Position numbers and translations under genes: made by a program
Virus record (IMG/VR): IMGVR_UViG_2711768075_000012
Location: 1 to 21,846 of that record
From: a virus
Taxonomy: Duplodnaviria; Heunggongvirae; Uroviricota; Caudoviricetes
Strand: one strand, 5' to 3'
Length of the DNA: 21,846 nucleotides
Shown: piece after piece, positions 11,857 to 11,899 of the stretch
Layout of the letters: every line of letters begins with the position of its first letter
How positions within the stretch are numbered: position 1 is the stretch's first letter
Notes under the pieces: model-generated
The model's database searches: none
What the model saw: the letters and a program-made list of their open reading frames with translations, nothing else
What the model was told of the DNA's origin: nothing

Positions 11857-11899
11857 ATAATAACCTCCTGATGATACCTGTTCATTGGGAGGTTATTAT
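11857..11899 (+). promoter_or_regulatory. perfect 12-bp inverted repeat (ATAATAACCTCC / GGAGGTTATTAT, 19-nt loop) sequestering the RBS and start codon of the downstream moron; overlaps a TATAAT -10-like hexamer (11856-11861)
   Basis: Left arm 11857-11868, right arm 11888-11899. The right arm contains GGAGG and the first two bases of the ATG at 11898. Candidate translational-control hairpin and/or operator. Confidence 0.5.

Follow-up and report, generated by a model that had tools for sequence, protein, structure and literature searches.

A hairpin over the start site of a WYL accessory gene as a candidate translational insulator in a lambdoid prophage

Between the Q antiterminator gene and a WYL-type accessory ('moron') gene of a lambdoid prophage lies an inverted repeat that is real, exact and beyond chance, and that folds in plus-strand RNA into a long hairpin covering the start of the accessory gene. 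We propose that this hairpin would serve as a plus-strand RNA translational insulator for the WYL gene. Early rightward transcripts would carry both arms, fold the 21-bp stem and bury the Shine-Dalgarno sequence (SD) and the AUG, and the WYL gene would thus be left untranslated from the early lytic mRNA; translation would be possible only from RNAs that begin within the 5' arm or downstream of it. Short RNAs of this kind would most simply originate from a -10 element within the 5' arm itself (TATAAT, TATTAT or TACAGT, depending on the variant), with a predicted start at about 11868-11870. From the folding and conservation data we infer that the hairpin is likely to act as a sense-strand translational mask in vivo, while the full model, in which the mask is combined with an embedded promoter, stands in our estimate at an even chance of being correct.

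Genomic context of the WYL accessory gene

The window, by which we mean the whole 21,846-nt stretch of phage DNA analysed here, carries upstream of Q a cI-like S24 repressor gene on the minus strand and then cII, Rha/Ash, RusA, KilA-N and DUF968 genes on the plus strand, and from this plus-strand array running from cII to Q we conclude that Q ends the early rightward operon (Table 1). The Q open reading frame was called mechanically from 11436, the PGAP start being equivalent to the later start given in Table 1, and its product matches in sequence the solved Q21 structures 6JNX and 6P18 and is ~57% identical to Q of 933W/VT2-Sakai. The region was present at an identity of at least 95% in 52 complete E. 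coli genomes (allele 1, as in S88), and a second allele (allele 2), with nucleotide identities of ~85% in Q and ~78% in the WYL gene, was found in ~22 further E. coli genomes such as RM10042 and O104:H21 CFSAN002236, in some cases within Stx2 prophages.

Table 1. Positions of the hairpin and of the features surrounding it in the window
Feature	Position	Strand	Basis or remark
Q antiterminator gene (Q21/933W family)	11451-11822	+	Pfam PF06530, E 6.5e-48; RefSeq annotation in S88
Hairpin 5' arm	11854-11874	+	Fold; anti-SD CCUCC and -10-like hexamer inside
-10-like hexamer TATAAT	11856-11861	+	Candidate internal promoter, predicted start ~11868-11870
Promoter-like site TGAACA-16-TATTAT	11857-11884	-	Consensus scan, 9/12 matches
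Hairpin loop UACCUGU	11875-11881	+	Fold; IS1 insertion here in one relative
Hairpin 3' arm	11882-11902	+	Shine-Dalgarno GGAGG (11888-11892) and start codon (11898-11900)
WYL accessory ('moron') gene, 205 aa	11898-12515	+	N-terminal WYL fold and beta-rich C-terminal part
933W/VT2-Sakai-type late promoter module (pR'/tR')	12586-12669	+	Alignment to the VT2-Sakai annotated late promoter, qut site and terminator

The accessory protein gave a weak Pfam match to WYL, and the start codon of its gene is the one called by PGAP in E. coli S88. An AlphaFold model of the protein (pLDDT 73.8) was matched by Foldseek to the ssDNA-sensing WYL domains of CapW, BrxR, DriD and PafBC, an example being 7TB5 with an rmsd of 1.4 A over 68 columns. 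In contrast to these four regulators, no HTH domain was found in the WYL protein by either Pfam or Foldseek, and neither PADLOC nor PHROGs assigned the gene a function other than that suggested by the weak WYL match. A WYL protein of this kind, devoid of an HTH domain, could serve as a sensor decoy or modulator. The family is very small, comprising, besides the two E. coli alleles, a few homologues from Leucothrix, Vreelandella, Nitrincola and metagenomes that are 30-37% identical. These distant homologues in other bacteria have unrelated upstream regions and contexts with no comparable hairpin, and no third allele was found in IMG/VR (queried with the accessory protein and Q), in a search of 5.8 billion proteins or in the GTDB genomes. 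Likewise, relatives of Q at 52-68% identity are followed by a tightly coupled ORF, by terminators, or by a small hydrophobic ORF together with a strong promoter; since they carry such different things at this place, the hairpin is not a general feature downstream of Q.

Late promoters of the Q family normally abut Q. In the window, the two are separated by ~0.8 kb due to the inserted WYL gene, and the late promoter module consists of a -35 element TTGTGT (12586-12591), a 17-nt spacer with CAAAAAT, a -10 element TAGTGT (12609-12614; aligned to TATCAT in Sakai), a conserved initial transcribed block AAGAGTGGTTAC and finally CCCGC-N6-GCGGG followed by T6 (12648-12669). In the VT2-Sakai record (AP000422), Q is directly followed by an annotated putative late promoter, with a qut site and terminators, and the module of the window also aligns with the sequence next to Q in three other relatives of Q. 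The module is present in every allele-1 locus with DNA reaching that far, mostly 753 nt after the hairpin, and it follows the WYL gene copy of allele 2 as well. Longer Q alleles have a 3' end similar to the stretch at ~12575-12608, which suggests that this stretch is a remnant of an earlier Q/pR' junction. With the late module at this place, the WYL gene falls between Q and pR' and forms the end of the early operon. Its orientation is that of the array from cII to Q, and no terminator was called between Q and the WYL gene. The picture of transcripts reading through from the Q operon, on which the first-pass annotation had built, is thus a reasonable one, given that the pR'/tR' module lies downstream of the WYL gene.

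We initially considered the TATAAT in the left arm of the repeat as the Q-dependent late promoter pR' itself, with the conserved block after it as a pause or qut region. The TATAAT is found 34 nt past the end of Q, where pR' is usually located, and in an invariant block of the inner left arm, CTCCTGATGATAC, the positions from about +3 to +8 read GATGAT, which is similar to a -10. This candidate was rejected because promoter, initial transcribed region and terminator are all present at 12586-12669, where the homologue of the VT2-Sakai/933W late promoter is found, and at the same place in allele 2. Moreover, no direct-repeat QBE of the Q21 type (as in PMC6606751) is evident, and no terminator stands ahead of the 618-bp gene. 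It is hence extremely unlikely that TATAAT is pR'. The late promoter of Sakai is constitutive and gives the short StxS RNA (PMC7547250). Our hairpin resembles this pR'-qut-tR'/StxS module in following a Q gene of the Q21/933W family, and the window does have a homologous module; unlike that module, the hairpin (11854-11902) shares no sequence with it and looks like neither a terminator nor a QBE, the true homologue being located ~0.7 kb downstream.

The inverted repeat and its RNA fold

The two arms named in the first-pass annotation, ATAATAACCTCC (11857-11868) and GGAGGTTATTAT (11888-11899), were confirmed on the sequence to be exact reverse complements, and the positions it gave for TATAAT (11856-11861), GGAGG (11888-11892) and ATG (11898-11900) are right. 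The loop of 19 nt that it described needs correction, as the arms actually are 18 nt long (11857-11874 and 11882-11899, with a complementarity of 89%) and leave 7 nt between them. In plus-strand RNA, the stem comprises 21 unbroken pairs (11854-11874 with 11882-11902), extended by four G.U pairs, and the hairpin at 11854-11902 has a folding energy of -26.9 kcal/mol (z = -6.85) that none of 200 dinucleotide shuffles equalled. First-order Markov simulations gave an expectation of 0.06 perfect 12-bp inverted repeats with a loop of at most 40 nt per window, and three were found.

No Rfam family reached its gathering score over the hairpin, the only matches being miRNA-like hairpins at chance level (E of at least 0.16). 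A second copy of either arm with up to two mismatches, which could have acted as a partner in trans, was sought and is absent elsewhere in the window. RNA thermometers are marginally stable, mismatched helices masking the SD and melting at 37-42 C; a thermometer of the ROSE or fourU type was rejected for the present hairpin, as a stem with 21 unbroken pairs and -26.9 kcal/mol at 37 C is far too stable.

Located 34 nt past the stop codon of Q and consisting of an A-rich tract, a stem and then a U-rich tract (UUAUUAU), the hairpin might instead mainly serve the Q transcript, either as a weak intrinsic terminator or as a stabiliser of its 3' end, with the overlap with the ribosome binding site being incidental. 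Such a role would leave the exact anti-SD and anti-AUG arm unexplained, and we regard it as quite unlikely, also in view of a d'Aubenton-Carafa-type score of -16 in allele 1 and -20 in allele 2, compared to +15 for the tR'-like hairpin of the late module and +30 for the terminator at 14206. The core stem of -15 kcal/mol over 29 nt is low in GC, and the U tract of its tail, UUAUUAUGG, is interrupted. A terminator scan of 11300-14300 missed the hairpin and also the tR'-like hairpin at 12648-12669, and for this reason the absence of the former from the scan is weak evidence; both were likely missed due to flanking A/T pairs extending the stem into the T tract.

Predicted occlusion of the start site

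The first-pass annotation had claimed that the hairpin sequesters the SD and start codon of the accessory gene, and the predicted folding of the transcripts bears this out. Opening the segment 11888-11900 in read-through RNA was predicted to require 16-21 kcal/mol, and when different 5' ends were compared, the same segment required 2-4 kcal/mol in RNAs beginning at 11867-11872 versus 16-21 kcal/mol in RNAs beginning at 11700-11850, in agreement with the proposal that transcripts lacking the left arm would leave the ribosome binding site free. In the folded form, SD and AUG are both paired, with an unpaired probability of ~0.01. Among 29 genes of the window that were compared, the WYL gene has the most occluded start region (22.3 kcal/mol; the next 14.5, the median ~7.5), and its occlusion exceeds the 99th percentile of random window positions.

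Population variants and selection on the hairpin

At the hairpin, 11 of 43 related loci are identical to the window, and the perfect 12-bp form is consequently in the minority. The commonest variant, 11859 A>T (22/43 loci), changes the hexamer to TATTAT and introduces a T.T mismatch with 11897, while 11886 T>C (6/43) turns a G.U into a G-C pair and 11892 G>A (3/43) gives a C.A mismatch and an SD of GGAGA. One locus of the 43 (IMG/VR 2563366940_000006) has an IS1 in the hairpin loop, and its arms are thereby separated. Together with this IS1, three independent IS insertions were noted in this small region, the other two being an IS2-like element, the end of which is located directly before the hairpin of an allele-2 locus, and an ISVsa5 of the IS4 family splitting the WYL gene (NZ_CP026723.1); the region may be an insertion hotspot, or the WYL gene may be selected against.

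The two alleles have diverged considerably, with a dS of 0.80 in both Q and the WYL gene and with 53% identity at fourfold-degenerate sites; the corresponding dN/dS values are 0.22 (WYL gene) and 0.10 (Q). The intergenic stretch upstream of the hairpin is poorly conserved between the alleles and carries an 11-nt indel. The hairpin of allele 2 still folds (-21.6 kcal/mol, z -4.4), with one internal mismatch and one bulge. Its non-coding left arm differs between the alleles at 3 of 21 positions, where ~10 differences (~49%) would be expected neutrally (P ~0.001), and on this comparison of sequences the left arm is under purifying selection, conserved beyond the neutral expectation. All three differences are transitions, and two of them retain pairing as G.U, namely 11860 A>G, giving a G.U pair, and 11864 C>T, giving a U.G pair. 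The third, 11858 T>C, forms together with 11898 A>G the sole fully compensatory change (T-A to C-G), which occurs in the GTG-start variant only, the same 11858 T>C being a C.A mismatch in ATG variants. In the inner stem of allele 2, two wobble pairs have become Watson-Crick pairs and one A-U has become A.G.

Covariation was not supported, with 93.9% of cells paired over seven distinct sequences and 321 of 500 shuffles doing as well; since there are seven distinct sequences and two alleles only, these statistics are powerless. This lack of power, together with the persistence of mismatched variants in the population, leaves some room for a repeat that is fortuitous and without function. Given the expectation of 0.06 repeats per window, the folding z of -6.9 and the low divergence of the left arm (P ~0.001 against ~49% neutral divergence), we consider that very unlikely.

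The block CTCCTGATGATAC (11865-11877), made up of the inner left arm and the start of the loop, does not vary between the alleles, although its partners at 11885-11887 all differ. The block contains an ATG at 11871 that in allele 1 is in frame with the WYL gene; the equivalent ATG in allele 2 opens an out-of-frame ORF of 11 codons, the TGA of which overlaps the GTG start. As it has no SD and is out of frame in allele 2, ATG 11871 was rejected as the start of the WYL gene.

In E. coli RM10042 (NZ_CP028122.1; locus L002, 3390-7257), allele 2 is located inside an Stx2 prophage with the order Q, WYL gene, pR'-like module, small ORF, methyltransferase, three tRNAs and stx2A. The hairpin element of this strain therefore has Q on one side and, on the other, the promoter from which stx2 is expected to be transcribed.

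Candidate promoters in the left arm

The plus-strand hexamer changes to TATTAT in the most frequent variant and to TACAGT in allele 2, and T-12, A-11 and T-7 are retained in every variant (TATAAT, TATTAT and TACAGT). In a crude PWM, the plus-strand -10 site ranks 56th of 43,620 positions. The site has no -35 element and no TG extension as in an extended -10, and it was not called by the consensus promoter scan. The best -35 candidates are AATCAA/ATCAAA, in a region that is not conserved between the alleles because of the 11-nt indel. The hexamer alone is not rare, as TATAAT occurs seven times in the window, and its likeness to a -10 is largely forced, since it is complementary to UUAUUAUG. An internal plus-strand promoter, starting transcripts within the arm, is thus plausible but unproven on the sequence evidence.

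On the minus strand, the consensus scan called a promoter-like site (Table 1) that uses the same bases as the plus-strand site and from which antisense transcription would enter the 3' end of Q. In the commonest variant its -10 matches the consensus TATAAT, and in the same PWM the site ranks 25th of 43,620 positions, above the plus-strand site. The bases common to both hexamers (11856, 11857, 11861 and 11862) are invariant. With its 9/12 matches, its higher rank and these invariant bases, the minus-strand site would fit an element working at the DNA level, either a palindromic operator or a symmetric, bidirectional -10 with an antisense output into Q similar to lambda paQ. The decay of the palindrome in allele 2 speaks against such an element: three G.T pairs, one mismatch and one bulge have left a longest perfect run of 6 bp, while the pairing of the plus-strand RNA is kept. 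RNA of the plus strand is more stable than RNA of the minus strand in 7/7 variants, with -26.9 versus -18.6 kcal/mol for the window allele and -21.6 versus -11.5 kcal/mol for allele 2, an advantage of 7-10 kcal/mol in the two main allele forms. The changes preserving G.U pairs on the plus strand, taken together with the decayed palindrome, therefore favour a sense-strand RNA structure over a DNA operator. In addition, the WYL protein lacks an HTH domain by which it could recognise an operator of this kind, and the arm centres are 31 bp apart, a distance that is atypical for dimeric repressors. We thus assign a DNA-level element a low probability, and the protein operator that the first-pass annotation had put forward as an alternative is disfavoured.

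As a whole, the reading given in the first-pass annotation has held with regard to masking by the hairpin, position in the operon and conservation, while its promoter has fared less well, being without a -35 element, having a variable hexamer and facing a rival site on the minus strand.

Origin of translatable transcripts

The dN/dS ratio indicates that the WYL gene is under purifying selection, and the gene must therefore be expressed by some route despite the occlusion of its start. Since RNA initiated upstream is predicted to be effectively untranslatable, a 5' end within the hairpin would be required, arising either by initiation or by processing. RNA processing, or else a factor acting in trans, could switch on the WYL gene from a masking hairpin that has no internal promoter; RNase III might cut the two-turn stem, for example, or RNase E might cut in the loop or an arm, removing the 5' arm. 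RNase III substrates have ~20 bp or more of mostly uninterrupted double-stranded RNA, and the near-perfect stem of 21 bp has the length of such a substrate, length being the sole criterion applied here. Processing would also supply the expression route that purifying selection on the WYL gene demands where the evidence for a promoter is weak. Against this, cleavage within the stem would as easily destroy the segment with SD and AUG, no complementary anti-arm occurs elsewhere in the window, and the key -10 positions are kept in all variants. We therefore consider processing or a trans factor unlikely as the switch.

RNase III-processed hairpins are well known from phages, as in lambda sib/int retroregulation, in the lambda N leader and at the sites in T7 early mRNA. 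Like these, the hairpin described here has a long, near-perfect stem of about two turns and is intercistronic, beside a translation start. It is unlike them in having SD and AUG both within the stem, and cleavage could here inactivate the gene.

Comparison with known systems

A hairpin occluding the ribosome binding site of T4 gene e was reportedly described by McPheeters and colleagues in 1986. A masking hairpin of this type, with a late promoter in its 5' arm, has been found for T4 e, soc, 49, I-TevI/II/III and segB and for Aeh1 mobE (PMC3014915, PMC2988022). As in the T4 e group, our hairpin would bury SD and AUG in RNA initiated upstream and has a promoter hexamer, here a candidate, in its 5' arm, and the gene concerned is an addition lying within a longer transcription unit. 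The two differ in that the present element belongs to a temperate lambdoid prophage and not to a virulent T-even phage; in that the -10 here is a candidate for sigma-70, compared to the gp55-dependent TATAAATA of T4; and in that the predicted 'on' state is the lysogen or some other condition instead of late infection. By this analogy, the hairpin is plausibly a case of the T4 gene e/I-TevI type in a temperate lambdoid prophage, and a full-text search of one paper library gave no report of such an arrangement for lambdoid morons. If this is true, the T4 way of adding a gene outside the timing of its operon is also used by temperate lambdoid prophages, and the HTH-less WYL protein appears to be deliberately excluded from the early lytic programme.

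The moron concept, said to be that of Juhala and colleagues in 2000, refers to accessory genes that carry a promoter and a terminator of their own and are expressed from the repressed prophage. Like lambdoid morons, the WYL gene is without a phage function, is inserted between conserved modules, has a candidate promoter of its own and is followed by a tR'-like terminator. Unlike them, it is situated between Q and the late promoter, and its insulation would be translational, by the hairpin, and not by a terminator. Any transcription starting at the hairpin runs into the pR'/tR' module, and in Stx2 prophages the sister allele fills the same slot, directly upstream of the pR'/tR' module that controls the toxin.

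A more speculative reading, to which we assign a distinctly small probability, is that of a two-way switch in which a single symmetric -10 (TATAAT/ATTATA) would fire divergently in the lysogen. The sense start would provide the only translatable mRNA for an HTH-less, perhaps ssDNA-sensing, WYL decoy or modulator of host defence regulators, and the antisense start would, by analogy to lambda paQ, cover the 3' end of Q and damp it. In the lytic cycle, RNA reading through from upstream would close into the hairpin, silencing the WYL gene.

Other features of the window

Two Rfam families scored above gathering on the plus strand, isrK at 5741-5817 (59 bits) and C4 antisense RNA at 5842-5929 (82 bits). 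Both matches are inside or beside a gene of Rha/Ash type (5381-6544), in a region of antirepressor control RNAs of the Gifsy-1/P1 type. At 7103-7154, within an ORF of 330 aa (6762-7754), a perfect 13-bp inverted repeat (ATCCATCAGGTCA / TGACCTGATGGAT) is flanked by repeated GGTCAAAGTGA motifs, which looks like an iteron-bearing replication origin within an initiator gene. At 20985-21040, a perfect 14-bp inverted repeat (ATGTGTACACCTAT / ATAGGTGTACACAT) comes directly after a consensus TTGACA and a terminator-like GGGTTTTTT, an arrangement that looks like an operator-controlled promoter. Just past the stop codon of the methyltransferase, a strong terminator-like hairpin, GGCCACGTTGCGTGGCC (14206-14230), is followed by TTTTTATTT. 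This hairpin falls within the first part of the holin ORF as called mechanically (14179-14610), and the true start of the holin is probably further downstream than 14179.
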